Numbered from the stretch's first letter, positions 9,237 to 28,289 are shown. The stretch: 64,000 bases of DNA from Candidatus Fermentibacterota bacterium (GCA_016928395.1 JAFGKV010000114.1:16525-80524); one strand, 5' to 3'. Notes: a model not told the origin generated them from the letters alone. Translations and numbers: made by a program.

Positions 9237-9237
9237 C

Positions 9238-11818: not shown

Positions 11819-13000
11819 ATGAGGATGGCGATGCGCATACACAAGCCGCTCGAACTCTGCCGGGTTGACCGTGCGTTGATTTTGGCCGCCCTGCCCATGC
11901 TGTTCTATGCGGTGGGCACGGCAGTAGTGGCCCGTGACCTCCAATCCCACCTGCCGTCCGGTCCTTCCCGGCTGGTCTTCTCGTCGGCCGTCGACTGGGC
12001 ATTGGGCGTGGTAGCCGGATATGCTGTTCTCATCGCACTCGGTGTTGTGCTGCGTCACCGATCGCCATCGAGCGGTGTCTTCGTGTACATGACCCTGGTC
12101 TACTTCGCCATCAATAACGCGATTCTGGCCACGTTCATCGGGCCACTCTCCAGCCCGCCCTGGCTCTCCATCCTGGGGCTGGCAGTACTAGGCCTTCTCC
12201 TCCTGGGTTCCCGGGAAGTCTTCACCAGTATCAGCATCTACCTGGTGGCATTGGGCCTCATCCATGCGCTGGGGACGACCGGCAGGCTTCCTTACCGGTA
12301 CATCTTCGAGGAAGGCGCGGCGCCTTCGTGGTGGATGTGGCGGATGGCAGTGGTCACCATTGCCAATACCGTGATCATCGTTCTGGTTACCGCCTATGTC
12401 GTTGCGGCATGGCAGCGGCGGGAATCCAGTTTCCGCGATCTTTCCAACCAGGATGATCTCACCGGCGTGGGGAATCGCCGCTTTCTCAGCCATGCTCTGC
12501 GCACTGAATTCTCCCGCGCCCGCCGCTATGGCCGGGAGATGACCTACGCCATTGTCGATCTTGACCACTTCAAGCGTGTGAATGACCGGCACGGCCATCC
12601 CATTGGAGACTTCGTTCTCAGGGCAACGGCAAAGGCTTTGACCGCCTCCACGCGGGAAAGCGACACGGTCGCCCGCTGGGGAGGCGATGAGTTTGTGCTG
12701 CTCTTGCCCGAAACAGGCGTGTCAGGTGCACAGGAACTGGCCGAACGGTGCAGAGCCGCCATTCGCGCGACCGTGGCCGCCGAGACGGGGATAGGGATCA
12801 CCAGCAGCGTCGGCATCGCCTCAATGCGCCACGAGGGTCTTCACTCCCCGGATGATCTGGCTCGGATCGCGGACACAGCCCTGTACGCGGCCAAGCAGGC
12901 CGGTCGGAATCGCGTGGTGATCGCCGCCGAGCCGGCGAAAGACGGCGTCGTCACCTTTCCTCGAATCGTCTCTCAGAATCCGCGCCCCAACGCTATGTGA
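11819..13000 (+). CDS. Membrane-anchored diguanylate cyclase (GGDEF domain)
   Basis: Six or so N-terminal TM helices, then a GGDEF domain: GVGNRRFLSHAL...YAIVDLDHFKRVNDRHGHPIGDFVL...RWGGDEFVLLLPE (intact GGDEF motif). Start placed at an internal Met cluster (MRMAMRI); the ORF begins at 11678. Confidence 0.75.
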   Translation: MRMAMRIHKPLELCRVDRALILAALPMLFYAVGTAVVARDLQSHLPSGPSRLVFSSAVDWALGVVAGYAVLIALGVVLRHRSPSSGVFVYMTLVYFAINNAILATFIGPLSSPPWLSILGLAVLGLLLLGSREVFTSISIYLVALGLIHALGTTGRLPYRYIFEEGAAPSWWMWRMAVVTIANTVIIVLVTAYVVAAWQRRESSFRDLSNQDDLTGVGNRRFLSHALRTEFSRARRYGREMTYAIVDLDHFKRVNDRHGHPIGDFVLRATAKALTASTRESDTVARWGGDEFVLLLPETGVSGAQELAERCRAAIRATVAAETGIGITSSVGIASMRHEGLHSPDDLARIADTALYAAKQAGRNRVVIAAEPAKDGVVTFPRIVSQNPRPNAM

Positions 13001-14589
13001 ACGCGACCCTGGAGCGGATCACTCCCGCGGGGCACGCCGTAGGCTAGTTCGATCATGCCCACTGTGGTGCGAGCCATGATACCCATCCCGACCCCCAGCA
13101 GTCCTTCATGGCGCTCACCCACTTGATACACGCCACAGTCGACAAACGCGAAAAGTGATGATGCACCGCGCGATACGCGATGCAACTCCATCACGATCCA
13201 CCCGGCGCTCTCTGTACGGAATTGGGCTTCACGGTAGCCGCGCACGGTCCGTGCGCCACCCACCGAGAAGCGCTCGGGAAGCGGAAGCTCCTGACCTCCG
13301 TGTACGGCATGCCGCGCAGCACCACGAAGGACTGCCAGGATCCCCGACCCGAGCCCCAGCGATCGCCGGACGTCGACCTCGACACGTACGACAGGCGTCA
13401 CGATCTCTGAGGCAATCTCACGCAGTTCCTGGTACCCGACCCTCAGACTCACCCAGGATCCCGTGGGAGGGACATCGTCGCCATGCTCCCTGTTCCAGAT
13501 TCCCTTTCCCCACGCCTCATCCGCCCTGGTTGAGGCAAGAGGGGCCCCTTCGCCCGGAATCACCCGCCGGCCACGATACCCGATGTAGCCCCTGAAGCTG
13601 CCTCCGAGGTCCCAACCAAGGGCGACCGTTCCATCCCGCTCCACCCAGAGGGTGTCTTCCACCACCTGATTGATGCCGATCTCCAGCGACGGCGGCAACC
13701 CAAGAATCCACGGCTCACGGTACGTCAGCGCCAAGTCGGTTCGCCCAGCGCCACGGGCTTCCCATCGGAACGATGCTTCCCGGGCCGTGCCCGCGATGTT
13801 GCGAAATGCGGCCTGCACACTGCCCACCACCGCGCCGTCCCTTGCAAGACCCACCGCGCCCCGGGCTGTATGGGTAACCCGCTCCACCAGGGGAAACCGC
13901 ACCACAACTCCACCAGGGTCGATGCCGCGCAGAAGTACGGGTTCACCAACCGAGGAGTAGTACCCGGTTTCTCGCAGTCGAGCCACCGCACGATCCATGC
14001 CGCTCTGACGGTACGGCATGCCTGGCCTGATTCCCGCCAGTTTCGACACTACGGAAGCTCTCGTTCTCACAGAATCCGATACCTCGATGCGCTCGATGAC
14101 ACTCCGCGGGCCTGCAGTCGCGCCGACGCGCAACGTCACCATCCCGGCACTGCTGTCCACATCCACATGTCGAACGCCGAGAGAAACAAATGGAAACCCC
14201 GCCTCCTCATGCGCTCCGAGGAGTGTGCTCAGCCTCGCAGTGACGACGCCTGCCTCCCACGGACTCCCTGCCAGATCCTGCAACCGCAGCACTGCATCAG
14301 CGGCATCCGACGAGGCGCCATCCACCACGATACGAGCCACAGTGTATCGCCGCCCGGGAACAAGGCGAAGCGTACGCACGCCTTCCGCCGCGGTGGTCTC
14401 GAATCGTGCCTCGAAAAAACCGTTCCTGCCCAATTCGACCAGTATATCCTCCTTGACGCAGGATTCCCGCCCACTCTCGGTGGTGTCGGCACATGGGGCA
14501 GCGAATCGGGAGGCGGCCGACTCCGGTAGGATGTCACTCATCTCCCACACGGTGGCCATGAGCCCCATCGCTACGACTGCGCAGATCAT
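12973..14589 (-). CDS. Omp85/BamA-TamA family outer-membrane protein
   Basis: Signal-like N-terminus MICAVVAMGLMATVW. Long soluble POTRA-like region followed by a beta-rich C-terminus ending ...VHIALGRGF (terminal Phe typical of OM barrels). The start ATG shares one nt with the upstream stop (TGATG at 14587-14591). Confidence 0.6.
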   Translation of the reverse strand: MICAVVAMGLMATVWEMSDILPESAASRFAAPCADTTESGRESCVKEDILVELGRNGFFEARFETTAAEGVRTLRLVPGRRYTVARIVVDGASSDAADAVLRLQDLAGSPWEAGVVTARLSTLLGAHEEAGFPFVSLGVRHVDVDSSAGMVTLRVGATAGPRSVIERIEVSDSVRTRASVVSKLAGIRPGMPYRQSGMDRAVARLRETGYYSSVGEPVLLRGIDPGGVVVRFPLVERVTHTARGAVGLARDGAVVGSVQAAFRNIAGTAREASFRWEARGAGRTDLALTYREPWILGLPPSLEIGINQVVEDTLWVERDGTVALGWDLGGSFRGYIGYRGRRVIPGEGAPLASTRADEAWGKGIWNREHGDDVPPTGSWVSLRVGYQELREIASEIVTPVVRVEVDVRRSLGLGSGILAVLRGAARHAVHGGQELPLPERFSVGGARTVRGYREAQFRTESAGWIVMELHRVSRGASSLFAFVDCGVYQVGERHEGLLGVGMGIMARTTVGMIELAYGVPRGSDPLQGRVHIALGRGF

Positions 14590-17500
14590 CAGAAGTACGC
14601 TACCAATTCCATCGAACCTTCTCGCACTTTGCCCCTGCCCGCCTCTGATCCGACGCTCAGGCTCATGGTCAAGGTCAACTTCTCCTGTATCTTGTGTTCG
14701 CCCCCAACCTTGATGAGACGGGAGAAACCCTCTTGATCCACGCGGCGCAGCAATGGAGCCAACGCAGACCACGGCCCATCGGCCCGGCGCCATGCAAGCT
14801 CACCATCGATGCGGAACCGTCCTCTCCCGGGCAACGCCAGCCGAAGCCCGGGTGTGACCACGGCCGCATGGAGCACGGCCTCGGTCGCTTCTCTGCTCTC
14901 GCCCGCCACTTCTCGGACAACGTCTTCCCGGGAGAGCTCGCCGCTTCCCACCACATCCAACCGGCCTGTTAGGGGCAGAGAAACAGCCGGCGAGAATCCC
15001 CAGGTCTTCGACCTCGCCACCACCGTGCTTCCTCCTGAGAGCGCGGGACTCTCCCGTTCCTCGGATGAGGCGCGATACACGGCCATGTCGGTGGAAATCA
15101 TCTTCCATCTCGCTCCCCTCGCCCGCACGGCGCATCGCGTCTGATGACGCCTGGTGCGCTGGTCTACCCGCCGGTTATCCGCATCGGCAGCGTAGGCGAA
15201 CTGGGTTGCGATGGCGAACTCGCCGCCCGCGGGCCGAACCTGCATGCTGCCGTCTATTCGACTCACGCGCCGTAGTGTCGTGGAATCGCACTTCACTACT
15301 GCAGGGCGCAACAGGTAGAGATCCGTTCTCCTGTCTGACCGGCTGGTGACCTGGATACGACCGGTCACGTCAGCATTGATGCGCCGTCGCCACTCCGGGC
15401 CACGGCCCCCTGGTGCCAGGCGGAGCCCAACGATCCCCTCCACCAAATCTGTCCTCTCGGCGCCCCCGGAGGGCACCAAGACCTTTTTGTGAGTACCCAG
15501 TTCTGTGCCCACCCACGTTCCCAACGAATCATACTCGCCCACATTGGTCTCCCACGATTCCTCCGGGACCAGTTCTTCGACGAGCTGTTCCGATTGTCGG
15601 CCCGAGATCTTGTAGTCCAGCTCCAGCCTGGGCCCCCAGGACACCGGCAGTGCGGATACCCGTGCGGTGCCCAGAGAGGACACAATGTCCTCGGGCAGAA
15701 CCTTGCCTTGATCCGCCAAGAGCATCCGGTAGGCAGTGGCATAGCGGAGCCGGGTGTGGTTGAAGTCAACCCTGGCCGTCGCCTTGACACCCGCGTTCCC
15801 CGCCACGCCTATCTCCCACCACCGTCCTGACGAGCTGCGCATCCATGCGTCGGGATCCGTGATATGCTCTTTGGTGATTCGGCTGCCGGTTACCACCCTT
15901 GCCGTTGTAGCGGAGCGGCCGATTCGTGCGCCCGCGCCGATATCCATGTACCCCCGGCCCGAGAGCCCGCTGTTCGCCTCTCCCTTCCACATCACGAGAG
16001 GACTCCAGAAACCGAAAGGACGATCCAGCGCGCCGTCGGTCCACCACCGCGTGTCGTCTTTGGCCACTGATCGATTGAAGCGCCCAGTCATTGAATAACC
16101 GCCCGGACCCAGAATCGTCCCGGTCACTTGAGCCCGGCGGGATACTGTCGTCCCCCGGCGCATTCCACCGAGCACGAGGCCGAGGCGACCGTCCCGGGGC
16201 AGCCCGAAGGATAGATCCAGCGTGGCTTCGTCCTCGGAGCCAGTGTCGTCGATACCGCTCCAATCCCGTGTCCATTCCACCGGCCTGGCGCGGCCGGGCG
16301 TCGCGAATCCCGCTCCCTGAGACCGCCACGTTGCGCCCCCCTGCCACCACGGAAAGACTCCTCCCCCACCATGCGCCGACAGATGGGCGTACACTGCGCC
16401 CTGGGTATTGTCCCGGTCATCCCGTGAGGATAAGGTATTAGCATCCCGTACCCCCGCCGCTGCCTCTACATCCAGACGCATGCTGTCCTCTCCCACGCGA
16501 ATACCGACAACCGCGCTTTCGTGCGACCGGGGTGCCTGTACGGTTCGCCAGGCCACGTAGTCCCCGTGCCCGGGCCCGACATATGCCCAAAAGGCGGCGT
16601 CAACGCGCACATAGTCGCCTCCTGCATCACGGTAGAACGTCGCCTCAAAGGCCCCGGCGCCCCCCCCGAGCGAGCTGATCCGCCCCATGTCCACGGGAGT
16701 GTGCGGCGCCCGCGGGATCTCCCCCCCCCGCACTAAGATCACATCCTCACGGCGGTCGTATGCGCCTGCGCCCGTGCTTTCGGCTCGGGCTGCGAAAGGC
16801 CCGCCGCCCGGACCGTAGTACTCGAAACGCGAGCCGACCCGGCGATAGGAGCCCGAGGCCCCGACCGAATCGAACACTGCGTCCCATCCTCCCCCATCGT
16901 GGGGCACGAGAAAGCCAACGTGCAGGGTGTCATACGTGCCCGCGTTCAATCCGACAAACCGGTAGGTGGGCGCCCTGGCCCGTTCGGGATCGTCGCCCGC
17001 GGCCCCCAGCACCGCCCGCTCCTCCTCACCCAGAATCCAGTCCATGGGCTGGGATGCATCGTCTGCTTCACGAAACGCTGCGAATCGTATGGTTATTGCG
17101 TCGGAGATGCTGCGGACTGCCGTTGCCAGGTACACGGTGCGACGGTAGCTCTCCGCGGTGTACTGGAAGTCGACGCTGATGCGCGACAGTCCGGTAATTG
17201 GGCGGCGCTCGGTAAACGTCACCTCGCCAGTCGAATAGTCGATGGTGTAGTCCTTGTCACTGCCTCGGGCCACGGGCGATCCGTCGACCCAGACCCGTTC
17301 CGTTCCCGCCAGGATGACGACGGTACTGGCCCCGCCAGAGAGATGGCGCGCCAGGTAGTAGGGACCTTGGGCGCCGTCGATGCCGGTGAATTCGACACTC
17401 ACGAAGGTCCCCCCGGTGGAAGCCGCAGCCACGTCTCCGGACCACTGCCCGTGGGCCAGCGTACCGGCAACGCCCTGCATCTTTCTCTCAAGGCTCAAGA

Positions 17501-18194
17501 ACCTGAACCCTTCTGTGGCGATGGCGCAATCGCCCACGCTAAGACTGCTCTCCTTCCGCTTCAGCTCGATGACCACACGGTCAATGTCACGCAGCTCCTG
17601 GGTCGTGCCCTGAGGCTGGATGGGCGTACTCTGGTCACTCAGTGAGGCGGTGACCTCCACGTCGCCCGCCAGCCTCCCCTGAAGCTGTACCTGTAATGCC
17701 TGGTCAAGGCTGGGATCTTTGCCTGAGCCGAACCGTACGCCGATGGTCTTGGTGCCGGCGACCTGGAGGGAATGCTCGGACGAGAGATCGGCGGGGTATT
17801 CCGTGGCGGGAGCGGCCGCCGTCACTGCCACAATCTCTTCACCCGGCGAAGGCAAAGCGCGGCGCTGGAGGTGAACCGGTATGCCCAACGGCAGAAAACG
17901 ATACTGGATGCGTACCGTGCTTTCGGCCATGCTGGGGAGGAAGTGAATGCGATTGCGGAAGTCAAGACGAAACCCAGCGCCGGCGGAGAGAAGAGAGTCG
18001 GCCGCCCACACCACGACGGATTCGCCCACGACAAAGGAATCCGGCAGCGCCACCTCCCGAGGCACCGGTGGTCCTAATGCGATAACCCTCTGGATCCCTG
18101 GCGCCGCCTGGGCATTGAGCCCGAGGAAAAGCAGAAGGATGCAACAACGGATAGCCCAGCCCCTGCCTGACGGCGCCCGTTCTTCCCTGTCCAC
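14589..18194 (-). CDS. Giant (~1200 aa) exported W/G/R-rich beta-type protein of unknown family; C-terminal ...ELVAYF
   Basis: ORF 14589..18641. A probable GTG start near 18194 gives signal peptide (M)DREERAPSGRGWAIRCCILLLFLGLNAQA|AP. No motif recognisable to me. Terminal aromatic residue and abundant alternating aromatic/Gly segments suggest an OM beta-barrel or beta-rich exported protein. Confidence 0.5.
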   Translation of the reverse strand: MDREERAPSGRGWAIRCCILLLFLGLNAQAAPGIQRVIALGPPVPREVALPDSFVVGESVVVWAADSLLSAGAGFRLDFRNRIHFLPSMAESTVRIQYRFLPLGIPVHLQRRALPSPGEEIVAVTAAAPATEYPADLSSEHSLQVAGTKTIGVRFGSGKDPSLDQALQVQLQGRLAGDVEVTASLSDQSTPIQPQGTTQELRDIDRVVIELKRKESSLSVGDCAIATEGFRFLSLERKMQGVAGTLAHGQWSGDVAAASTGGTFVSVEFTGIDGAQGPYYLARHLSGGASTVVILAGTERVWVDGSPVARGSDKDYTIDYSTGEVTFTERRPITGLSRISVDFQYTAESYRRTVYLATAVRSISDAITIRFAAFREADDASQPMDWILGEEERAVLGAAGDDPERARAPTYRFVGLNAGTYDTLHVGFLVPHDGGGWDAVFDSVGASGSYRRVGSRFEYYGPGGGPFAARAESTGAGAYDRREDVILVRGGEIPRAPHTPVDMGRISSLGGGAGAFEATFYRDAGGDYVRVDAAFWAYVGPGHGDYVAWRTVQAPRSHESAVVGIRVGEDSMRLDVEAAAGVRDANTLSSRDDRDNTQGAVYAHLSAHGGGGVFPWWQGGATWRSQGAGFATPGRARPVEWTRDWSGIDDTGSEDEATLDLSFGLPRDGRLGLVLGGMRRGTTVSRRAQVTGTILGPGGYSMTGRFNRSVAKDDTRWWTDGALDRPFGFWSPLVMWKGEANSGLSGRGYMDIGAGARIGRSATTARVVTGSRITKEHITDPDAWMRSSSGRWWEIGVAGNAGVKATARVDFNHTRLRYATAYRMLLADQGKVLPEDIVSSLGTARVSALPVSWGPRLELDYKISGRQSEQLVEELVPEESWETNVGEYDSLGTWVGTELGTHKKVLVPSGGAERTDLVEGIVGLRLAPGGRGPEWRRRINADVTGRIQVTSRSDRRTDLYLLRPAVVKCDSTTLRRVSRIDGSMQVRPAGGEFAIATQFAYAADADNRRVDQRTRRHQTRCAVRARGARWKMISTDMAVYRASSEERESPALSGGSTVVARSKTWGFSPAVSLPLTGRLDVVGSGELSREDVVREVAGESREATEAVLHAAVVTPGLRLALPGRGRFRIDGELAWRRADGPWSALAPLLRRVDQEGFSRLIKVGGEHKIQEKLTLTMSLSVGSEAGRGKVREGSMELVAYF

Positions 18195-18240
18195 CGCGCC
18201 TAAACCGTTCCGTCCACGGAACCGCGGGCGCGCCGTCGCG

Positions 18241-19095
18241 CTACGGCACCTCGGCCAGGGCAAGCCCCACGATCGTGTCGCTCTCACGTTCCGCGACAAG
18301 AAGCATGCCATCCGTGGCGAAACACACGGCGGACGGGCTGGCGAGTTGCGGCATGCCGGCAGGCGGGCATGACAGATCGTAGACGACACCGTTCTTGAAC
18401 ACCCTGACGACATGTGCCTCCTCGTCAACCATCGCGCCGAGCCCGTCTTTGCGAATGTCCACGCTCCCCGGCGATCCCCCCACCGCGATGGCTCCCCGAT
18501 GGTTGCCGTGTGTGTCAAAGAAGTGCACAAGGCCTCCAGCCTGATCAGACACCGCCACACGTCCAGCCGCACATGCGAGGCCGGCCGGTATGAGCGGGAT
18601 TCGCGGTTCGTCTCCTGCCCCGCTGAGTCGGCGCAAGCCATCGAAGGGGTCTGTTACCATGATCGTTCCTGAGCCCTCGTCGGCGACAAACACCCGCCCG
18701 TCGGGCAGCGAGGCCACTGCCAGGGGTTTCCAAGGCCACACTCCGCCACCGGGGCCACGGATCTCCGTCACGGGCACACCGGCTCTGTCGACCTTCAGCA
18801 TGCGTGAACCGTCGGTATCAGCCAGATAGACGAACTGCCCCCCCGGATCCGTGACTGCCACGCGGTCTGAGAACTCCATCCATCCCTGCCCATTCCCACC
18901 GAAGGAGCGGACATGCCTGCCGTCCATAGAAAAGAAGTGAAAACGGGCCACTCCACGGTCTCCCACCCAGAAACCACCATGGGGACTCCGCGCCAACGCC
19001 TCCGGGCCATGCAGGATGCCCGGCCCAACCACCACGGATGACGACATCACCGACACGGTCTCCATAGCGGCGGCCGTCAGCAGCGCAAGTATCAT
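18241..19095 (-). CDS. NHL-repeat beta-propeller protein (exported)
   Basis: Signal MILALLTAAAMETVSV. Repeated blades: GQFVYLADTDGSRMLKVDRAG, DGRVFVADEGSGTIMVTDPFDG, AGRVAVSDQAGGLVHFFDTHGNHRGAI, DGMLLVAERESDTIVGL. ATGA overlap with the tonB stop. Confidence 0.5.
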   Translation of the reverse strand: MILALLTAAAMETVSVMSSSVVVGPGILHGPEALARSPHGGFWVGDRGVARFHFFSMDGRHVRSFGGNGQGWMEFSDRVAVTDPGGQFVYLADTDGSRMLKVDRAGVPVTEIRGPGGGVWPWKPLAVASLPDGRVFVADEGSGTIMVTDPFDGLRRLSGAGDEPRIPLIPAGLACAAGRVAVSDQAGGLVHFFDTHGNHRGAIAVGGSPGSVDIRKDGLGAMVDEEAHVVRVFKNGVVYDLSCPPAGMPQLASPSAVCFATDGMLLVAERESDTIVGLALAEVP

Positions 19096-19784
19096 CGGAG
19101 AACAAACTCCACGGTCACGTCGCCGGTGGCGTCGGCGGATCCCGTCACCGATTCGAAACGCCATTGTCGAAGAGCCTCTATGGCGGCGTCATCCAGGGCG
19201 GGGTGAGCTTTGAGTACCAGAGTCGCGACCCTGACGTTCCCGTCCGGCGTGACCACCAGACGAACCTTGACAATCCCCCCGCTGGGCGCGCCCGGGGGAA
19301 AGACCGGGTCGACCATGTAGATCGGCGTTCGGGTCGAGAGCGTCCCTTCCACTCTGACTTTGACTCCCGATCCCACCGCCGGCGAGGACGTGGTCACCGG
19401 CATCGGAGCCAGTCGTGCGCCCGGAGAGGGGCCGGGAGGGGCAGGATCGGACGGGGAGAGCAAAGGGCTGGGGGGACGGTCCGAAAGAGCAGAGGAGGCC
19501 GGCAAGTCGGGAAGAAGTGCTTCGTTCCGCTCGGAAGCCGGCAGCGGCGCGATGTCACCGGTGCGTGCCCGCGGCCCTGTGGACTCCCGGGGCGGTGCCT
19601 GCGGCGCCGGCTGTTCCTCTGCCGAGGAGATCTCTCCAGCCAGCAACTCCACCTCCAGAGGCGGCGCCGCCATGGGCCGCACAGAGACATGAACAAGGAG
19701 GAAAAGCACGGCAAGGAGACCGTGCAACGCCACGGCGGCTCCCACTCCCACATGAGAGGGGGAACACCACGGATCGCGTCTCAC
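19092..19784 (-). CDS. tonB: Energy transducer TonB (N-terminal TM, Pro-rich linker, TonB_C domain)
   Basis: TM LHGLLAVLFLLVHV. Pro-rich PSPLLSPSDPAPPGPSPGARLAPMP. C-terminal PIYMVDPVFPPGAPSGGIVKVRLVVTPDGNVRVATLVLKAHPALDDAAIEALRQWRFES matches the TonB C-terminal fold pattern. Confidence 0.65.
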   Translation of the reverse strand: MRRDPWCSPSHVGVGAAVALHGLLAVLFLLVHVSVRPMAAPPLEVELLAGEISSAEEQPAPQAPPRESTGPRARTGDIAPLPASERNEALLPDLPASSALSDRPPSPLLSPSDPAPPGPSPGARLAPMPVTTSSPAVGSGVKVRVEGTLSTRTPIYMVDPVFPPGAPSGGIVKVRLVVTPDGNVRVATLVLKAHPALDDAAIEALRQWRFESVTGSADATGDVTVEFVLR

Positions 19785-20203
19785 CGGGCATCCTCCGGCT
19801 TCGACGCGATAAGCAACCGCTGGTACCCGGCGCGACGACCTGCATCCAGTACGCTCACCACCCAGTGGAACTGGCTCACCCGATCTGCCCTGATGATGAG
19901 CGAGGGTACTTCCTGCACGGGATCCAACGCGTGACGCAACTCCTCTTCCAGGCGTTCCGCCCCGATCCTCCGGGCGCCGAGAAAAATCTCACCGCGCTCG
20001 GTCACCGTCACCACGACTCGGTTGTGGGGCTCCGGCTCTGCGGTCTGAGTTCGTGGGAGGTCTATCTTGATACCCGGCTGCACCACGAAACTCGATGAGA
20101 GAAGGAAGAAGATCAGGAGCAAAAACACGATATCGGTAAGCGAGACTGCCGGGATGGAGGAGATCCGACGCCGTGACGTCTCAAACAACGACCGGGCCAT
20201 CAT
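19781..20203 (-). CDS. exbD: Biopolymer transport protein ExbD/TolR
   Basis: Internal Met start MMARSLFETSRRR. Single TM DIVFLLLIFFLLSSSFVV. Periplasmic domain ...RVVVTVTERGEIFLGARRIG...SLIIRADRVSQFHWVVSVLDAGRRAGYQRL typical of ExbD/TolR. Confidence 0.7.
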   Translation of the reverse strand: MMARSLFETSRRRISSIPAVSLTDIVFLLLIFFLLSSSFVVQPGIKIDLPRTQTAEPEPHNRVVVTVTERGEIFLGARRIGAERLEEELRHALDPVQEVPSLIIRADRVSQFHWVVSVLDAGRRAGYQRLLIASKPEDAR

Positions 20204-20816
20204 CTTCACCCTGAGTCGGCACCAGGCGCAGCAACTCCACCGCTGCGCGACGCATCTGGTGAGCAAGGCCTTCGATCTCGCCCACCAGCCAGTTGTTGCC
20301 GATGAGCGCGGGTATGCCCACCACCAATCCTCCGGCCGTGGTGACCAAGGCCTCCCAGATTCCTCCAGCGAGGATACTGGCATCAACCTGCCCGGCATGG
20401 GTCTGCACCTGCATGAAGGCCCGGATCATGCCCGTCACCGTGCCTAAGAACCCGACCATGGGCGCGGCGGCCGCCACGATGGCGAGCCAGCCTATGCGCC
20501 GCTCAAGAGTGTCGATCTCCAACTGCCCCGCCATGGCCATGCCGTCCCGCGCGACATCGCGATTGCCGCCGGCCTCCAGCCCCGCCAGTAACACCTTCGC
20601 TACGGGTGCGGTGCTTCGCCTGCACCGGGCCTGTGCTACTTCTTCCTGGCGCTCCTTGACCAGCGCCAGGATTTCCCAAGAGATCCGGTCAGTCCCCTTC
20701 CGGGCGCGCCGCAACACGATGTAGCGCTCGATGAACACCGCCAGGGCCACCAGTGACCCCAGCGCGATGGGCACCATGAAGTAGCCGCCCTTGATCACCA
20801 GCGTGAGAAGATTCAC
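20181..20816 (-). CDS. exbB: MotA/TolQ/ExbB proton-channel protein
   Basis: Probable GTG start (VNLLTLVIKGGYFMVPIALGSLVALAVFIERYI) sharing one G with the upstream TAG stop (ctaGTG). Three TM helices. Conserved C-terminal segment WLAIVAAAAPMVGFLGTVTGMIRAF. Confidence 0.7.
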   Translation of the reverse strand: MNLLTLVIKGGYFMVPIALGSLVALAVFIERYIVLRRARKGTDRISWEILALVKERQEEVAQARCRRSTAPVAKVLLAGLEAGGNRDVARDGMAMAGQLEIDTLERRIGWLAIVAAAAPMVGFLGTVTGMIRAFMQVQTHAGQVDASILAGGIWEALVTTAGGLVVGIPALIGNNWLVGEIEGLAHQMRRAAVELLRLVPTQGEDDGPVVV

Positions 20817-22243
20817 TAGGCTCCCTCCTGCCCGTAGGGCCGTTTGAGGCTCCATCCTAATCCGATCGCCACCATCGTGCGAGGACGCGCGGTGAGGCTG
20901 AACCCCCACCCACTGGATCCTCGAGCTATCGCTTCCCAACCCCCTCCCAGAGGCATCGCCACATCCAGCGTGACACCGCCTGATGCCGGGAGTGAAGCGT
21001 CCCACCCATGCAGTCCTGTTTCTCCTTCCACCGTTGCCCGGAGCCGGGGACGCTGCCCGCGGGCAGCAGACACCCACCACTCCATTTCCGGAATGAGGGG
21101 CCACTGCGCCGAGTACGGCAGAGAGCCAGCCCGGGTGGTGACCTCCAGTCCATCCAACGCCACGCCGCCACTGATCCGCCCTCGCGAGTCATGCCACGAC
21201 ACGGCCAGGCTTACCTTGAAGCCTTCTCCGGCCAGCGATTCCGTTACCCAGAGGTCGTCAACTTCCCGCCAGGCAGGCGCATGGCCAATGTGTCGATCCT
21301 GGAGAGTCCCAACGACGGTCATCCGGGGCGACGCCCGAACAGCCACGGTCGCGTCCACACTCCAATCCGTCACACACGCATGGCCAGAGGTCGTGGGATG
21401 GGCTGCGGGGAAGGCCTCACGCAGCGAGGTCTCATCGAGAAACGAGAGTGTCCGCTCTGCCGAAATCGCCCACGCGGTGCGTCCCAACGAGAGGGGACCG
21501 AGGCGAGTGGATGCCTCCATGATCAGGCGAGTCGTGTCACCATCGTCAACCATCATGGGACCGGCGCTGACCATGATCCGGGGACTCTCGTGGCACCAAC
21601 GCACCATGCCGCCCGCGACATGATCCCCCCCCGTCACCTCGAAGGGAAGATGCACTCCCGGCACATGGCCGGATACCCAGGCCTGACCATGGAAGGTGCT
21701 CTTCTCCCCCTCCCAGCCGCTCCCCGAGACCATGGCCCGGGTATGGTACAGGCCCAACGGGACCTCAGCCCAGAGACGTCCATGGACCCAGCCCGGTGCG
21801 ACCTCGATCTCGTCCAGCCGATCAGCCCAGTGCTGCACCCTTAGTCCCACGGACCCCCACGCGCCCGCCGTCAGAGCGCCGGCGCGCATGCCCCGGCGCT
21901 CCAGACGCCCCGCATCGAAACTCCAGAGCCGGGCCGCCACCCCGCCGCCGGCTTCTCCGAGACCGGCCGTAATCACTCCCGCGTACACGGGACCGGCGGC
22001 CGCGGACAGGCTGAATCCTACCGGGGGAGGCCGGTGAAGCGGCCGGACCGGGGCCTCCCGGTGCGAATCGCCCATCTCCGGCCTCGGCAACTGAATCGGG
22101 GGGATTGCCCGAGGAAGCAGCGGGGCAGACCAGAACTCCCTCTGGGGAAGATCAAGCTGTGGGGAGCCCTTCACCACCAGATGGGGCAGGTCTAGCTCGC
22201 CGGCCGCCATGACGAAGATCAGGCCGGCGACAAGGCTGCTCAC
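20816..22243 (-). CDS. Hypothetical exported W-rich protein, probable outer-membrane beta-barrel (475 aa)
   Basis: GTG start overlapping the upstream TPR stop (GTGA). Signal MSSLVAGLIFVMAAG. Many Trp/Gly. No family recognised. Confidence 0.4.
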   Translation of the reverse strand: MSSLVAGLIFVMAAGELDLPHLVVKGSPQLDLPQREFWSAPLLPRAIPPIQLPRPEMGDSHREAPVRPLHRPPPVGFSLSAAAGPVYAGVITAGLGEAGGGVAARLWSFDAGRLERRGMRAGALTAGAWGSVGLRVQHWADRLDEIEVAPGWVHGRLWAEVPLGLYHTRAMVSGSGWEGEKSTFHGQAWVSGHVPGVHLPFEVTGGDHVAGGMVRWCHESPRIMVSAGPMMVDDGDTTRLIMEASTRLGPLSLGRTAWAISAERTLSFLDETSLREAFPAAHPTTSGHACVTDWSVDATVAVRASPRMTVVGTLQDRHIGHAPAWREVDDLWVTESLAGEGFKVSLAVSWHDSRGRISGGVALDGLEVTTRAGSLPYSAQWPLIPEMEWWVSAARGQRPRLRATVEGETGLHGWDASLPASGGVTLDVAMPLGGGWEAIARGSSGWGFSLTARPRTMVAIGLGWSLKRPYGQEGA

Positions 22244-25086
22244 GGGCCGGCTCCAACGCCTTCGCCCGCCAATCGCCGCGCAGCCTCATTGGCTGGAGCC
22301 GCCAACGAATCCTGAGGGGAGAGGTAGGCCAGCCGGAGATAGAGCCTGCGTGCTTCACTGATGCTGCCCAAGGCTTCCTGAACCCGCGCGGCAATCCAGT
22401 AGACCCGTGGGGAGGGCCCGGTCGAGCGTTCAAGAAGCGGCGAAAGCCATGCCCAAGCGCTGTCGGCGCGGTCGGCGGCCAAATGCGTCTCCGCCCCGGC
22501 CAGGACTGCCTTGTCGCGCCACTCCACGCCGCCGGTGCTGGCCAGTGTCGCCCAGACGGCAATGGCCGAATCGGAGGAATCTTCAAGGGCGAAGCCCAGT
22601 TCATACCGTGCGGCGTCTCCCAGCTCGCTGCCTGGATAGAGGGCCAACATCTCTCGCAATAGCCTCGCCGCGGTAGCGGAATCCCGGGGGCGGGAGAGCC
22701 GCGCAGCCTCGTAGAGCCCCTCTGCGGCTTCGCGGGCATCGGGCCAAAGGCGAGCCAAGGACTCAAATGCCTCCTGCGCCTCGTCCACCCGCCCGGAACG
22801 GGCAAGACTCCACGCGGCACGCAGATCTGCCCAAGGCGTGCCAAGACTTCGATACAAGGGCAATGCATCCTCGTATCGATTGAGCCCGAAAAGAAGGTCT
22901 GCCTTTGCCTGGATCAGCCCGCTCCTCCTGCTCTCGTCCTGCGCCCGATTCAGCAGGGTATCACAGAGGATGATGGCCTGCCCGGCATCCGACGACTGCA
23001 ATTCCGCCCACAACGCTCCCTGGACGGCATGGGCCCACAGGTCAGAGTCAGGATAGCCTTGAACCAAGGAGAGATACGTGGTACGGGCAGTAGCATACTC
23101 ACCACGGTTATACTGACAATCTCCGATCCGATAGAGGGCATTGTCCCGCACTGTACGATCCCGTTGAAGGGCGACTACCCGTCGGTATTCGACCTCCGCC
23201 TCGTCGAATCTGCCGGCGCGGAAGAGGGCCTCAGCCTTCTCGAACAGCGCATTGTCGGCAATGTCTTCGGTGGGCGATGCATGGAATAGCCTGTCCAGCG
23301 TGGCAATAGCCTCATCAGTCTCACCGGCCAGCGACAGGGCCCGCCCCAGCCCCAACAAGGCTTCATCACCAATCTCGCGGCGGGCAACAATCTGGGTCGC
23401 CGCCCGGTACGATGCTGCGGCCTCGCGGTAGAGTTCCTGGGCCATGAGCACGTCCCCCGCGCGAAGAGTTGCCCTGGCAGCAGTCTCTGATCGCGGGTCG
23501 GCCGCCGCGGCTTCCCTGAAGCCCGCCAAAGCGTCGTCGTTCTTCCCCATGGAAAGAGAGGCCCATGCCCTGCCGAAGGCTGCGTCAGCCCGCTCCCGAG
23601 CCGTCGGCATGCCCGGAAGCGCCTCCCGATAGGCGGCCTCCGCCTCGGACCACCTCCCCTGACGGGCAATGGCCTCAGCTTTCCAGAATGCAATCCTGGC
23701 CGCAAGGCTGTCGTTCACCGACCCGCTGAAGGCACCGGCCAGACGCTCCACCCGATCCCATGACTCGGCACGATAAGCGGCAACCAGGGCCCGATATCCT
23801 AGATCGTGCGCCAGGTCTCCTTGCGCACGATCACGGGCATCGAGGAAGTACTCAGATGCATCGCTCCACCGGCCCTCGGCCGCCGAGATCTCAGCATAGA
23901 GAGCAAACGCCTCCACGCTGTCTCCGCGGCTGTGCAGGCGGGCCAAACCCCGGTCAAGGGTCTGCCTCGCCTCCCCCAGCCGGTTAAGATCGCGCTGGAG
24001 GCTCGCCCGAAGGAGAATGGCCCTGGCCAGCAGCGTCCGGTCGCTGATCCCGGCAGTTTCCACCGCCAGGAGCGAATCACCCGCCCCGGGCCGATCTGTC
24101 CTCTGAAGTGCGCTGGCCAGCAGGACTGCTGCCTCGCCCCGCTCGCTGCCCTCAAGCGTGCGCATGGCGCCTGAAAGCAACGCCGACGCCTCTTTGGGCC
24201 GGTCTTCCTCCATGTACATCCACCCCAGCAGCCTCACCGATTCAAGCCCGCGCTCGGCGAGAACCGCGATGGCCTCATCGTGCCGGCCCTGATCCCAGAT
24301 GCTGCGCGCCTTGAGTTCCCGCACCACTCGCGAATCCGCTCGTTCTGGCCAGCGCCGCGCCAGTGTCTGGAGGGTTACCTCGGTATCCGCGGGACGCTCC
24401 GTCTCCACCAATAGCCTCGCCAGGGACACTATGTCATCAGGCCGTGCATCGGGGCTGGCTACCAGCCTCGTCAAGACGTCTCTGGCCTGCTCGTCGCGCC
24501 CCATGCGCTGCAGGGCCTCGGCCTGGCGTCGCAGTGCCCATCCGTGGAGATCACCGGCGGGAAGCTTCTGGGTTGCCTGGCTCAGGAGTTCCGCGGCGCG
24601 GGGAAACGCATCTCGCCTGAATGCCGCCTCGCCGGCCCAGTAGATAGCCTCACCTGCTCCATGAGAGGCCTCGGCGGCAGCCCGAAGATACAGGCTCTCG
24701 GCTTGAACGAACGAGCCCAGCTCGAACAGCGTCGCAGCGAGACGGAGGAGGGCTTCACCTGTCCATGGTGAGACCGGATGCGTGGCAATAAAGGATTCCA
24801 GACGTGTGCGAGCGCGTACCCATTCACCCAGTTGCACCCAGCAGTCTGCCGCCAGAAAGGCGGCTTCCTCGGCATCGGGATGTGATCGACGCTGAGCGAC
24901 GAAGCGTTCGAGTTCATCAGCAGCCAGACGGTACTCGCCCTGGGAGTAAAGGTGCCGGGCGAAGTCAAGATCGAGCCGGGCACCGGCATCGGGTTGCGCG
25001 CGTAGTGGTGACACCGATGGCATGAGGACCACGAGGAGCCCGACAGCCCCGATGACCGCACCGCGGGGATGAAAACGCCGCATCAT
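22240..25086 (-). CDS. Large periplasmic tetratricopeptide-repeat protein (~949 aa)
   Basis: Signal MMRRFHPRGAVIGAVGLLVVLMPSVSPLRAQ. More than 20 TPR-like helix pairs across the length (AEALQRMGRDEQARDVLTRL; YRIGDCQYNRGEYATARTTYLSLV, etc.). ATGA overlap with the upstream lipoprotein stop. Confidence 0.65.
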   Translation of the reverse strand: MMRRFHPRGAVIGAVGLLVVLMPSVSPLRAQPDAGARLDLDFARHLYSQGEYRLAADELERFVAQRRSHPDAEEAAFLAADCWVQLGEWVRARTRLESFIATHPVSPWTGEALLRLAATLFELGSFVQAESLYLRAAAEASHGAGEAIYWAGEAAFRRDAFPRAAELLSQATQKLPAGDLHGWALRRQAEALQRMGRDEQARDVLTRLVASPDARPDDIVSLARLLVETERPADTEVTLQTLARRWPERADSRVVRELKARSIWDQGRHDEAIAVLAERGLESVRLLGWMYMEEDRPKEASALLSGAMRTLEGSERGEAAVLLASALQRTDRPGAGDSLLAVETAGISDRTLLARAILLRASLQRDLNRLGEARQTLDRGLARLHSRGDSVEAFALYAEISAAEGRWSDASEYFLDARDRAQGDLAHDLGYRALVAAYRAESWDRVERLAGAFSGSVNDSLAARIAFWKAEAIARQGRWSEAEAAYREALPGMPTARERADAAFGRAWASLSMGKNDDALAGFREAAAADPRSETAARATLRAGDVLMAQELYREAAASYRAATQIVARREIGDEALLGLGRALSLAGETDEAIATLDRLFHASPTEDIADNALFEKAEALFRAGRFDEAEVEYRRVVALQRDRTVRDNALYRIGDCQYNRGEYATARTTYLSLVQGYPDSDLWAHAVQGALWAELQSSDAGQAIILCDTLLNRAQDESRRSGLIQAKADLLFGLNRYEDALPLYRSLGTPWADLRAAWSLARSGRVDEAQEAFESLARLWPDAREAAEGLYEAARLSRPRDSATAARLLREMLALYPGSELGDAARYELGFALEDSSDSAIAVWATLASTGGVEWRDKAVLAGAETHLAADRADSAWAWLSPLLERSTGPSPRVYWIAARVQEALGSISEARRLYLRLAYLSPQDSLAAPANEAARRLAGEGVGAGP

Positions 25087-25688: not shown

Positions 25689-26203
25689 GGCTCCTGCTCC
25701 AGATCATACAAGTCGGTAATACGGAAGCGATCGTCGGCGCACCTCGTAATCACAAACTCCGCCCAGAAGTAGCCGACGCCTTTCTCGAAAAGCTGGTCGG
25801 CGGTCTCCCAGACGAGTAGATCGCACTCTCGGTACAAACGCCACGTCTCCGGATCGTCGCTGATTCTGGTCGCATAGTCTCCCACCATGGTCAGCTCGAT
25901 GTGATCCATGGTGCTGAACATCTTGCGGTGCATCCGCTCCTCCTCCACCTTGCCCCAGGAAGGCGCCGGCCAGATGTCGTTCACGTCGCGGGGGACCAGA
26001 TGGAACTCAAAGGTGTCCACGAGGCATTCCAAGTAGCGGTCGATATCTTTGCGTTGATAGGCGTTGGCCAGTTGCACGACGACGCCTGCAGGGGTTGCCA
26101 GCAAATCCTGGGGGTCACCATCATCCTTGTCCGGGTCAAAGATGCAACCGGCAAGGCATAGGGCCGCCACCGGCAGGATCACGCCCACTTTCCATCTGGT
26201 CAT
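25685..26203 (-). CDS. Hypothetical lipoprotein
   Basis: Signal plus consensus lipobox ILPVAALCLAGCIFD (L-A-G-C). ATGA overlap with the ClpX-like stop. Confidence 0.4.
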   Translation of the reverse strand: MTRWKVGVILPVAALCLAGCIFDPDKDDGDPQDLLATPAGVVVQLANAYQRKDIDRYLECLVDTFEFHLVPRDVNDIWPAPSWGKVEEERMHRKMFSTMDHIELTMVGDYATRISDDPETWRLYRECDLLVWETADQLFEKGVGYFWAEFVITRCADDRFRITDLYDLEQEP

Positions 26204-27798
26204 GGCTCCTCCTTATCCTCTGAGTTACCCGCGGACTTCGACCGGTTTGAACCCGTAGGCAGCGGGGGTTCACGGTGGGCATACGTGGTCTTGATCATCG
26301 CATCAAGGTAGGCACGGGGATCTTTGCATGCCGCGAGGCCAAGTCGCAGGCTCCTCTTACCCGCCAACTGCAGGCCGTACTCCAAGTCCGCGAACCGCTC
26401 CTGGCAGAATGCCTTGACATCCTGACCATCCTGCGTTGCGCGGTCAATGATCCAGCGACGAGCCGGGGGAGTAATATCGATTCGGATCCCGGTGCGTTCC
26501 CGAAACTGGCTCGCAAAGACCTCAAGCAGCCCTTTCACCAGCACCTGCCGAAGATCTCCCTCGGGATCAAGAACTGTGTCCTTCGTCACCACGACCCGGG
26601 GAATTCCGGAACCGGGGATTCCATGCTCGAAGGGCAGTAGGCATCGCTCCAGAATCGACTTCAGGCCCCGAGCGCCAGTCCCCTCGGCGGACGCACGATG
26701 GGCGATCTCCCGGTATGCATCATCGGCAAACTCCAGGGTTACCCCATAGGATGCGAAGTCCCGTATCTTGCCTTGCGTGAGTGGGCTCAGCGGAGTCCTG
26801 AGGATCTCCAGGAGCTTATCTTCATCCAACGGGTGGAACACCACGACGATGGGAAGCCTGCCGATGAACTCCGGTTCAAACCCGTACGCGATAAGGTCTT
26901 CAGAGCGAACCTGGGAGAGAATCCAAAACGGATTCTCAAACTTCGCCTCTTCAGTAGACTCGAAGCCGATGACCCGTTTGCGCAGGCGACGGCGTATGAT
27001 ATCGTCCAGCCCGACAAACGCACCGCTCATGATGAAGAGTATGTTGCGGGTGTTAATCTTCTTCCGGTGTACGCGGCCCGTGCGCTGGGCCTCCATCATC
27101 GCCTCCATCTGACTGGCCAGATCGAATGGCGCCCGCAGATCGACTTCCGTCTCCTCCATGAGCTTCAGCAGGTTCCGCTGCACACCCGTACGGGACACAT
27201 CCGGTCCCTGTGTGACACCACTGGCCGCGATTTTGTCGATTTCGTCAAGATAGATGATCCCATGCTCCGCCAGAGAAACCATACCGTTGGCCTGGTGGGC
27301 CAGATCCCGGACCAACTGCTCGACATCGCCACCCACGTACCCGGTCTCGCTGAACTTGGTGGCGTCACCCTTGACGAACGGCACCCCCAGTTCTTCGGCA
27401 ATCAGCCTGACGATGTAGGTCTTGCCCACACCCGTCGGGCCGATCATGAGCATATTCGCCTTCACCTCCCCCACGAGACGCCGCTCAGCAGAGGCCGATT
27501 CCCAGGCTACCCTGTGAAAATGCGTACAGACCTTCGTTGCCATGGCCCTGGTAGCCTCGCCCTGCCCGATGACGAACTGCCGGAGACTGCCTTCCAGGCC
27601 GGCAGGCAACACGTCGAACCGAATCCTCTGGGGTTCATCCTCCGGCTCCTCCGCCTTCGGTGGCGCCGGACGCGCCGCAGGCATCATGACCTTCACACCG
27701 TACTGGTCACCGATAAAGCCCTGCAGCTTCTCCTGGAGTTTCTCCAGGACACGCTCGAAGCCCTCGGCACCCTCTTCCCTTGTCGTCTCGTCACTCAT
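26200..27798 (-). CDS. ClpX/HslU-family AAA+ ATPase (ClpX-like unfoldase without Zn-finger N-domain, extended termini)
   Basis: Walker A MLMIGPTGVGKTYIV. ClpX-like GDATKFSETGYVGGDVEQLV. Walker B GIIYLDEIDKIA. Sensor VQRNLLKLMEET. No CxxC zinc-binding N-domain. About 110 aa N- and 150 aa C-terminal extensions. Start chosen at MSDETTREE after GGAAGGA. Confidence 0.65.
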   Translation of the reverse strand: MSDETTREEGAEGFERVLEKLQEKLQGFIGDQYGVKVMMPAARPAPPKAEEPEDEPQRIRFDVLPAGLEGSLRQFVIGQGEATRAMATKVCTHFHRVAWESASAERRLVGEVKANMLMIGPTGVGKTYIVRLIAEELGVPFVKGDATKFSETGYVGGDVEQLVRDLAHQANGMVSLAEHGIIYLDEIDKIAASGVTQGPDVSRTGVQRNLLKLMEETEVDLRAPFDLASQMEAMMEAQRTGRVHRKKINTRNILFIMSGAFVGLDDIIRRRLRKRVIGFESTEEAKFENPFWILSQVRSEDLIAYGFEPEFIGRLPIVVVFHPLDEDKLLEILRTPLSPLTQGKIRDFASYGVTLEFADDAYREIAHRASAEGTGARGLKSILERCLLPFEHGIPGSGIPRVVVTKDTVLDPEGDLRQVLVKGLLEVFASQFRERTGIRIDITPPARRWIIDRATQDGQDVKAFCQERFADLEYGLQLAGKRSLRLGLAACKDPRAYLDAMIKTTYAHREPPLPTGSNRSKSAGNSEDKEEP

Positions 27799-28289
27799 CT
27801 GCATCCTTCCTATGGCGAGCCCGTGGCATGGGCACAATCGTAGCGGCCGCACTCAGAAGGCATGCGTTCTCCACCCGAGACGCTGCGATGCGTGCCACGC
27901 CCGCCTGTTCCTGCCCAGGCCCACGTTCTCAATCTGCCTACCCATTGTCAGGCCAAGCGGTTCCGTGGCATGCGCCCTGGGAGGGAAGGGCCTTCGGATG
28001 GCAGGTTGCCCGCTTCACTGGCAGTCAGGGTCCGGGGACGCCGTCTCTCCTAGTTTCACTCACGGAATGCGGTATCACCGGGCCCGGCTCCTCTCCCGCG
28101 CCAGCGGCCGCGGCGTGAGGGCCACATCTAACACCAGCAGGTCATTCTCGTCAGCATTACCGGCAGTTGGATTCGCTTCCGGGTGGCTTGACGGAGAGGC
28201 ACCCGTTGCCCTGCTTGCGTGTCACGTACGAACTACCCTTGATGGAGGGTCATGGCACCCTCGTCTGCGGGCATTCACGCCGGGCCTCA

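Follow-up and report, generated by a model that had tools for sequence, protein, structure and literature searches.

What is encoded by a gene of some 1200 codons that lies directly against an Omp85 gene and matches no entry in the family databases? The question is raised by a 64,000-nucleotide stretch of Candidatus Fermentibacterota bacterium DNA (GCA_016928395.1 JAFGKV010000114.1:16525-80524; 'the window' hereafter, with positions counted from its first letter). An original prediction, made from the sequence by itself, had picked out an exported protein of about 1200 amino acids (aa), belonging to no recognisable family and coupled to an Omp85 gene; it had overlooked the adjoining NHL propeller gene and the Tol-like operon to which all three genes belong. 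The analysis reported here places the large protein, called the giant below, with high probability among the outer-membrane beta-barrels, and shows with similar confidence that propeller, giant and Omp85 form a conserved three-gene module. What the module does is a more tentative matter: at a rough probability of 0.45, a little under even odds, the giant is a barrel of about 40 strands that is folded or partnered by a dedicated Omp85. The three genes, in order of transcription, are the following.

18241..19095, minus strand: NHL-repeat beta-propeller, 284 aa, hydrophobic N-terminus; first gene of the propeller/giant/Omp85 module
14589..18194, minus strand: the giant, very probably an outer-membrane beta-barrel protein, 1201 aa (signal peptide of ~31 aa and mature chain of 1170 aa)
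12973..14589, minus strand: Omp85-family protein, 538 aa, with a predicted ~three POTRA domains and 16-strand barrel, a loop-6 VRGY motif and a BamA/TamA-like predicted fold

The start of the giant must be settled before its product can be discussed. The reading frame is open from 14589 to 18641 (minus strand); translation from GTG at 18194 to the stop at 14589 gives 1201 aa, beginning with VDREERAPSGRGWAIRCCILLLFLGLNAQA, continuing after the presumed cleavage site with APGIQ, and ending in SMELVAYF. Three observations favor the GTG: the version starting at ATG 18641 has 150 added codons and overlaps the upstream NHL gene by ~400 nucleotides (nt; NHL stop at 18241); six homologues (33-75% identity) place a short signal peptide just ahead of a conserved 'PGI(Q/R)R'; and the public database copy, 'hypothetical protein JXA88_07000 [Candidatus Fermentibacteria bacterium]', is exactly the same 1201 aa. 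The original prediction had called for a GTG near 18194, regarding the longer form as burdened with about 150 aa of implausible N-terminal sequence, and on both counts it was right. The cleavable-looking signal it described is also there, as a basic stretch, then a hydrophobic core, then an AQA/AP cleavage-type site, at a position conserved across the homologues. So is the direct coupling to the Omp85 gene: the giant's stop TGA (14591-14589) and the Omp85 ATG (14589) have one base in common, as TGATG. The claim of a Trp/Gly/Arg-rich product holds for glycine and arginine (G 12.0%, R 10.2%, with A at 10.7%), a richness due partly to a G+C content of 63%; tryptophan, at 2.3%, is only moderately raised.

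'No recognisable family' proves an accurate description. The best Pfam match to the giant has E = 0.11 and the best NCBIfam match E = 0.037 (11 bits against a cut-off of 200); searched against PDB sequences, profiles of the full family (102 sequences), of its conserved 220-aa region and of an 87-aa motif gave only chance-level matches. Relatives are plentiful all the same. When 1.84 billion representatives (50%-identity clusters) are searched exhaustively with a family profile, 6495 clusters match at E ≤ 1e-3, of which 2903 also do so at E ≤ 1e-30; the matches run end to end, and the lengths are uniform, nearly all 1130-1200 aa; as full-length homologues (1130-1260 aa) occur in thousands of clusters, the giant is not a chance open reading frame (ORF). 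A domain-alignment scan with one genome per species finds the family in at least 588 GTDB species. By source labels, these belong only to the FCB group (Fibrobacteres-Chlorobi-Bacteroidetes): Ignavibacteriota, Bacteroidota, Balneolales, Calditrichota, KSB1, Latescibacterota, Zixibacteria, TA06, Eisenbacteria and Fermentibacteria. Cultured carriers are Lewinella, Neolewinella and Phaeodactylibacter, among the Bacteroidota, and Rosettibacter (locus L023). Source names of family members are all 'hypothetical' or 'uncharacterized', with a single exception: UniRef calls the Neolewinella litorea homologue (P0264) a 'TonB-dependent receptor'. In the family neither a plug nor a receptor domain can be detected, so this label is probably an artefact of annotation, and one that could propagate.

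Conservation peaks in two places, mature residues ~110-350 and the C-terminal ..A.F. The first holds the motifs D.N.P.QPEGTTQ, LGD, RKLQG, QGPY, LAGTERV, DYTIDY..G..TFT and SRI.VDF.Y. In the second, F1170 and A1168 are nearly invariant among 102 homologues, and the terminal phenylalanine (...VAYF) on which the original prediction remarked is thus a trait of the family.

The predicted structure bears directly on the class of protein. An AlphaFold2 model built on the 102-sequence alignment (mean predicted local-distance difference test score, pLDDT, 83.6; predicted template-modelling score, pTM, 0.78) has an N-terminal beta-sandwich at mature residues 1-70, followed by a disordered linker; from 112 to 1169 it has ~42 long strands, mostly with short turns between them, arranged as a hairpin meander. 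Two insertions are set into this region: a small conserved beta domain bearing the DYTIDY motif (240-306) and a poorly predicted segment (353-525). Fold searches with the giant give partial barrel matches only, but all of those at E ≤ 1e-3 are outer-membrane barrels, and no TamB-like structure appears among the top matches listed. A signal peptide, a strand meander and an aromatic C-terminal beta-signal are the marks of an outer-membrane beta-barrel, and the giant has all three; its assignment to that structural class is made with high confidence. The suggestion that it resembles such a barrel more than the beta-taco TamB accords with the model, with the barrel fold matches and with the beta-signal.

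The family's most conserved motif, D.N.P.QPEGTTQ.L.E.DKV (mature 156-176; window ~17574-17636, minus strand), forms a loop between strands 3 and 4 of the model, where pLDDT is very low (~32). It is a candidate functional or lumen-facing loop.

Covariation adds an account of strand order that is separate from the model. With 304 sequences aligned and 295 kept (effective number 257), mutual information (MI) and mean-field direct-coupling analysis (mfDCA) were computed. Sequence-adjacent strands pair at ~2x background, and the best partner is the sequence neighbour for 23 of the 42 strands; the hairpin meander is confirmed by this covariation of adjacent strands. Among the 820 non-adjacent pairs, MI ranks strand 9 (mature 307-315) with strand 42 (1157-1169) at the top (z = 4.8); mfDCA puts this pair at no more than z = 1.0. 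A genuine signal would mean that the barrel closes at strand 9 and that the first eight strands lie outside the wall. Two architectures may thus be entertained for the modelled chain: a wall of ~42 strands, or a barrel of ~34 strands with the conserved first eight lying inside as a plug-like element.

Several known kinds of outer-membrane protein were considered as identities for the giant. A TonB-dependent transporter was rejected: there is no Pfam match to Plug (PF07715) or TonB_dep_Rec (PF00593) at E ≤ 1, and the strand number is wrong. The outcome of the original prediction's proposed search for transporter hallmarks is accordingly negative for plug and receptor domains and for clear homology; as to a TonB box, none is found family-wide, while the 'PGI(Q/R)R(V/T)' that follows the signal peptide near the mature N-terminus is clade-specific and is modelled inside the beta-sandwich. 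No OstA/LptD or usher domain was matched. TamB was rejected as well: Pfam gives no TamB/DUF490, AsmA or two-partner secretion (TPS) domain match at E ≤ 1, nor does NCBIfam for TamB or AsmA, and a cleavable signal, the beta-signal at the C-terminus and fold matches of barrel type all speak against it. DUF490, which had been proposed as a check at the C-terminus, is thus not matched at that threshold, and no clear homology to TamB was found.

The downstream gene is better placed than the giant within known families. Annotated at identical length (JXA88_06995), its 538-aa product passes the Pfam cut-offs for Omp85 (31 bits against 24), POTRA (28 against 21.3) and ShlB (26.2 against 22.7); the loop-6 motif is GGARTVRGYRE. 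The AlphaFold2 model (pLDDT 84.2) has ~three POTRA domains and 16 barrel strands, and its best fold matches are BamA and TamA (template-modelling score, TM, 0.65-0.75; TamA structures at 0.64-0.70). POTRA domains, a 16-strand barrel and the loop-6 motif together place it in the Omp85 superfamily. Within that superfamily the named positions do not suit it. As an equivalog it fails both BamA (TIGR03303, 62.9 bits against 297) and TamA (NF047950, 22.4 against 625), and with such low scores, ~three rather than five POTRA domains and a neighbour that is not tamB, both identities were set aside. TpsB was also discarded, as the ShlB match covers 75 residues only and overlaps the Omp85 match, BamA and TamA dominate the fold matches, and neither a TPS nor a haemagglutination domain is matched in the giant. 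In other phyla the orthologues run to ~590-665 aa (longest-ORF calls), with N-termini that resemble ordinary non-lipoprotein signal peptides; the one orthologue scanned for domains (L022) has three Pfam POTRA stretches. In the Omp85 search, canonical proteins of 800-855 aa are reached only at E 1e-6 to 1e-8, from which we infer that the module's Omp85 would be a distinct insertase-type paralogue rather than the housekeeping BamA. At its 3' end the gene meets a GGDEF diguanylate cyclase gene (11678-13000, plus strand), which converges on it with a 28-nt overlap.

The product sizes, ~1200 and ~538 aa, had been said to mimic TamB and TamA in reversed gene order. One could then suppose that giant and Omp85 are a reversed module of the TAM (translocation and assembly module) type, or a TpsA/TpsB pair, the giant being a periplasm-spanning or secreted partner. 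The sizes do resemble those of TamB and TamA; like TamA, the Omp85 carries three POTRA domains, and its model can be aligned to TamA structures at the TM values given above; its ShlB score is just over the cut-off. These likenesses meet the domain searches and fold matches already described, in which nothing of TamB, AsmA or TPS type appears; the giant has a cleavable signal peptide, not an inner-membrane anchor, and ends in the beta-signal of an outer-membrane protein; and the Omp85 scores higher on the BamA model than on TamA or ShlB. The TAM- or TPS-like reading is close to refuted, and the resemblance in size is coincidental.

Whether the pairing of giant and Omp85 is more than a local accident can be asked of other genomes. 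In 80 GTDB loci compared by ORF clustering, tblastn and hidden Markov models (HMMs), to which two further relatives (L083 and L084) were added, an NHL propeller gene lies directly upstream of the giant in 27 of the 80 and an Omp85 orthologue directly downstream in 22, as well as in L083 and L084; both of these relatives have the complete module. Spacing is tight: mostly -1 to ~200 nt between giant and Omp85, and -56 to ~120 nt between propeller and giant. In the window the propeller gene starts at ATG 19095, in an ATGA overlap with the stop of the TonB-like gene before it, and ends 46 nt from the giant. Module-bearing loci are labelled KSB1, Calditrichota, Latescibacterota, Zixibacteria and Eisenbacteria, together with several unclassified metagenome-assembled genomes; the contig of the Eisenbacteria locus is cut after the giant gene, and a TA06 locus (L048) has the propeller and the giant followed by a 544-aa ORF with no Omp85 HMM match. 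By distance clustering the module-bearing giants form one sub-clade, with the window protein and the TA06 protein on separate deep branches, so the linkage is old. Several module loci have rpsB-tsf-pyrH-frr upstream and ubiA, dtd and maf downstream. That propeller, giant and Omp85 make up a conserved module, present in the source organism and in no fewer than five further candidate phyla, is, we consider, very well supported. A literature search on giant barrels, SprA-like proteins and Omp85 + NHL operons found no description of such an operon.

The reading we prefer accounts for this arrangement in four steps. The giant would first cross the inner membrane by way of Sec, as its signal peptide, conserved in position among homologues, suggests. 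The co-translated Omp85 would then take up the giant's near-invariant C-terminal beta-signal (..E.x.A.F) and act as dedicated insertase, possibly also as stable partner, for a barrel beyond routine handling by BAM, the machinery that assembles beta-barrels; gene coupling and an insertase-type fold are the grounds for giving it that role. The propeller would serve as a periplasmic accessory, in a role like that of BamB or TolB, or as a plug for the barrel. The latter is geometrically feasible: with R = n x 4.4 Å / (2 pi cos 40 degrees), 40 strands give a C-alpha diameter of ~70 Å and a lumen of ~60 Å, so that a six-bladed propeller (~45-50 Å) could fit within. The finished barrel would be a wide outer-membrane conduit or hub, and in Fermentibacteria and Eisenbacteria it might be coupled to a Tol/Ton-like proton-motive motor whose genes share its operon.

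A number of observations weigh against this account. The strand 1-42 contact that would close the barrel is not detected by covariation in 295 sequences; the strand count of a closed barrel is taken from the AlphaFold2 prediction, and the first eight strands may belong to the wall or to a plug. The partnership of Omp85 and giant is drawn from gene coupling and a predicted fold, and the signal peptide of the window's Omp85 is weak and uncharged. Linkage to Tol/Ton genes is lineage-specific (5 of 84 loci). In Ignavibacteriota, Saprospiria and Balneolales the giant has no adjoining Omp85 or propeller, so that the partnership must be non-obligatory or the partners encoded elsewhere.

These solitary giants have neighbours of their own. 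In Ignavibacteriales/Melioribacteraceae the giant usually lies on the same strand, ~60-200 nt 3' of a cluster of HlyD, ABC ATPase and four MacB-like permease genes (L005, L006, L021, L023, L042, L054, L057, L075 and other Ignavibacteriales); this could be the synteny of related genomes, or could reflect a functional link to a MacB/Lol-type exporter. On the 3' side, Ignavibacteriota have genes for a NUDIX protein, a PfkB-family kinase, an IF-2B-family protein, a methyltransferase, a UvrD helicase, BrkB and a carboxyltransferase; as unrelated housekeeping genes these were dropped as functional partners.

A different perspective starts from SprA, which at 36 strands is the largest solved single-chain barrel and underlies a whole secretion system, the type IX system (T9SS); its known partners are PorV, a plug protein, a peptidyl-prolyl isomerase (PPIase), SprE and SkpA (PMC10994853). 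The giant would then be a compact translocon of the SprA/Sov type, a distant half-length relative of the T9SS component exporting folded proteins, with propeller or Omp85 as plug or PorV-like element, and with the operon's TPR protein and ExbBD-like motor as parallels to SprE/PorW and GldLM. We regard this as unlikely, although several lines of evidence invite it. SprA chains are the top Foldseek matches of the giant (E ~4e-6). Of 42 family members, 32 match the SprA model TIGR04189 (length 2319), the best at E = 6.1e-12 and always at model positions ~600-654, some 50 positions. The FCB-group distribution is common to the giant family and the T9SS; the TPR protein of the operon has a sub-threshold PorW/SprE match (72 bits against 250); and the window itself encodes a protein with a T9SS-type C-terminal domain. 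This last, at 46940-50848 (plus strand), is a 1302-aa M14 zinc carboxypeptidase with an InhA-like MAM domain and a C-terminal FlgD_ig domain; such a tail is of the T9SS sorting-signal kind, and the source organism therefore probably has T9SS-like cargo sorting.

The likeness to SprA is confined, however, to the motif of ~50 residues, which also matches phage distal-tail/tube models and the VP17 barrel. Scores are 11.1 bits for the window protein and up to 25.9 for eight relatives examined individually, against a cut-off of 200; the giant does not match TIGR04189 over its full length, and motif profiles fail to retrieve the solved Flavobacterium johnsoniae SprA even at E ≤ 10. The Foldseek comparison that the original prediction had proposed does put SprA first, among partial barrel matches, but at a TM of merely 0.22-0.27; clear homology to SprA/Sov, which was to count against the prediction, was not found, and what was found in its place is a weak, reproducible local match. 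At half the length of SprA, the giant lacks the large cap inserts. The family occurs also in Saprospiria, a class of the Bacteroidota, the phylum of the canonical T9SS, and there the giant would be a second system, not a T9SS replacement. No T9SS core genes are present among the scanned ORFs of the window (those flanking the locus and most of those of at least 390 aa). Proteins with a T9SS-type C-terminal domain near giant genes number 27 of 1071 ORFs, about the chance level, and enrichment of T9SS cargo was dropped as evidence. To judge from these profiles, the similarity reflects a common small domain, with possible distant kinship, and not membership in the SprA family.

The preferred reading, of a barrel with its own Omp85, has further to be set beside the genes upstream. 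The module is the 3' tail of a string of 11 minus-strand genes, in the order ClpX-like, two lipoprotein-like, TPR, 475-aa, TolQ/ExbB-like, TolR/ExbD-like, TonB_C, NHL, giant, Omp85, with stop and start codons that overlap or abut save for the 46-nt gap before the giant. The eight genes that precede the propeller are as follows.

26200..27852, minus strand: ClpX-like AAA+ ATPase, 550 aa, 300 bits against the ClpX cut-off of 359; first gene of the string
25685-26203, minus strand: small lipoprotein-like gene (172 aa), lipoprotein-like N-terminus, no known family
25083-25688, minus strand: small lipoprotein-like gene (201 aa), lipoprotein-like N-terminus, no known family
22240..25086, minus strand: exported TPR protein, 948 aa, which passes the Tol-Pal YbgF/CpoB model (168 bits against 90.1)
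20816..22243, minus strand: 475-aa protein with no Pfam or NCBIfam family, found at the same position in L083
20181..20816, minus strand: MotA/ExbB/TolQ-like proton-channel protein, ~211 aa, best model TolQ (85.6 against 221)
19781..20203, minus strand: ExbD/TolR-like protein, ~140 aa, best model TolR (49.6 against 127)
19092..19784, minus strand: TonB_C-domain protein (TonB/TolA-like), 230 aa, its start overlapping the stop of the ExbD/TolR-like gene

The same eleven genes occur in the same order in L083, where the giant is ~57% identical, and the 475-aa protein and the 201- and 172-aa lipoprotein-like proteins (N-termini ..FLAC.. and ..LAGC..) keep their positions there. An Eisenbacteria contig (L003) has TonB_C, NHL and giant in that order. 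The TPR protein also has a sub-threshold BamD-like match (76 bits against 81.4). The ClpX-like gene overlaps the next by 4 nt; its product is not a standard ClpX and makes an odd companion for Tol-like and outer-membrane genes. A promoter and terminator scan of 12700-19300 gave no signal above shuffled expectation between genes. In two Balneolales loci exbB and exbD lie directly 3' of the giant (L008, 13197-13868; L081, 13295-15343), a second and differently arranged link of the family to a motor of the Ton/Tol type.

These motor genes bring in two further explanations. In one, the giant is an uptake or gating channel energised by a Ton/Tol motor: its N-terminal third (~110-330) would be a plug or gate within a ~34-strand barrel, on which the TonB_C protein pulls by means of the proton-motive force. 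ExbB/TolQ-, ExbD/TolR- and TonB_C-type genes in the same overlapping operon here, in L083 and in L003, together with the Balneolales loci, suit such a channel; so do the focus of conservation on the N-terminal third, the MI pairing of the last strand with strand 9 and not strand 1, and, for what an automatic name is worth, the one 'TonB-dependent receptor' in UniRef. Yet neither Plug nor TonB_dep_Rec is matched, no TonB box runs through the family (the 'PGIQRV' of one clade lies in the modelled sandwich), the strand 9-42 signal is not reproduced by mfDCA, and most family members have no Ton/Tol genes nearby. We hold the channel explanation to be improbable.

The other explanation, more doubtful still, takes the giant as a structural part of a Tol-Pal-like envelope complex, with the propeller standing in for TolB and the barrel serving as an anchor in place of Pal, the function being tethering or constriction, not transport. 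In E. coli the order is tolQ-tolR-tolA-tolB-pal-cpoB, and it is mirrored here by a YbgF-like TPR gene followed by TolQ-, TolR- and TonB_C/TolA-like genes, a propeller and an outer-membrane protein; the TPR protein is over the YbgF cut-off, TolQ and TolR are the best models for the motor proteins, and in other phyla the module keeps company with the housekeeping genes named above. On the other side, beyond this lineage the module has no Tol genes; the NHL propeller has neither the N-terminal domain of TolB nor a TolB/PD40 match, and no TolB or Pal match was found among the scanned upstream genes; TolQ and TolR scores are well under the equivalog cut-offs; and 40 strands are not obviously needed for an anchor.

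Elsewhere in the window, mutS and mutL are adjacent (6609-9236 and 8995-10956, plus strand); their longest ORFs overlap by ~240 nt, and the TTG start of the mutL ORF is for that reason probably too far upstream. A 393-aa protein at 30064-31245 (minus strand), with a right-handed beta-helix and repeats of the Chlamydia-PMP type, is probably a surface or secreted adhesin-like protein.

A bolder proposal can be framed, one that we rate as rather unlikely: propeller, giant and Omp85 would constitute an unrecognised outer-membrane machine of the FCB group, with more strands than SprA, built or gated by its own BamA-like insertase. Were this true, the module, driven in some lineages by a Tol/Ton motor, would represent either a wide-bore translocon of a new class or a second, specialised BAM, and no variant of T9SS, TAM or TonB-dependent transport. 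Single-chain barrels of this size are rare, and here is a family thousands strong with no Pfam or NCBIfam model, solved relative or name, for which a private Omp85 and a propeller provide a direct handle on function. A client and its insertase encoded side by side would make testable how BAM-type insertases handle large barrels and how wide pores are sealed. The module-bearing form could also account for some features of the cell envelope in KSB1, Calditrichota, Latescibacterota, Zixibacteria and Fermentibacteria, phyla whose record is almost entirely metagenomic.

How the module stands among known systems can be stated by likeness and difference. LptD-LptE and the FimD/PapC ushers (26 and 24 strands, with plug) have far fewer strands and another gene context. 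Nearer in size are the barrels of a 'superfamily of large OMBBs' (outer-membrane beta-barrels) predicted from contact maps by Solan et al. (PNAS 2021; PMC8346858), whose families 002 and 003 have 38 and 40 strands; by description, these too are single-chain barrels predicted above the strand number of SprA, and the main text lists no accessions, taxa, gene context or function for them and mentions no Omp85 or propeller operon.

SprA/Sov (PDB 6H3I, 6H3J, 8GL6 and 8GL8) is likewise a giant single-chain barrel found in the FCB group only; Foldseek ranks it first, it has the ~50-residue motif at TIGR04189 ~600-654 in common with the giant, and its very wide pore has to be sealed or served by partner proteins. 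It differs in length, ~2300-2400 aa with large cap domains against 1170 aa with short loops; the giant's family scores and TM values are far too low for membership; the partners of SprA include no Omp85 and no NHL propeller, and no T9SS genes adjoin the giant.

The giant's operon has ExbB/TolQ-, ExbD/TolR-, TonB_C- and YbgF-like genes in common with TonB-dependent transport and Tol-Pal, and like a TonB-dependent transporter the giant combines conservation in its N-terminal region with a large barrel towards the C-terminus. The transporters have a plug and 22 strands, whereas the giant has no plug or receptor domain and ~40 strands; and, unlike Tol-Pal, the giant locus has no Pal or TolB, the linkage being confined to one or two lineages.

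TAM is reported to aid the assembly of large or complex outer-membrane barrels. The module resembles TAM and BAM in that its last gene encodes an insertase of the BamA/TamA type, with three POTRA domains as in TamA, and its operon resembles BAM further in that it encodes a beta-propeller, comparable to BamB, and a TPR protein whose BamD score falls just short of the threshold. It differs in that the giant is a barrel and not a TamB, the Omp85 fails both the BamA and the TamA cut-offs, and the propeller is of the NHL type, not BamB. Lipoprotein Omp85s with three POTRA domains are described from Bacteroidetes and Chlorobi (Heinz and Lithgow 2014; PMC4104836); the module's Omp85 differs from this TamL of Bacteroidota in not being a lipoprotein. 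Finally, the BAM complex of Bacteroidota has extra subunits (Liu et al., Nature 2025; PMC12611786), and these set a precedent in this group for remodelled insertase complexes.

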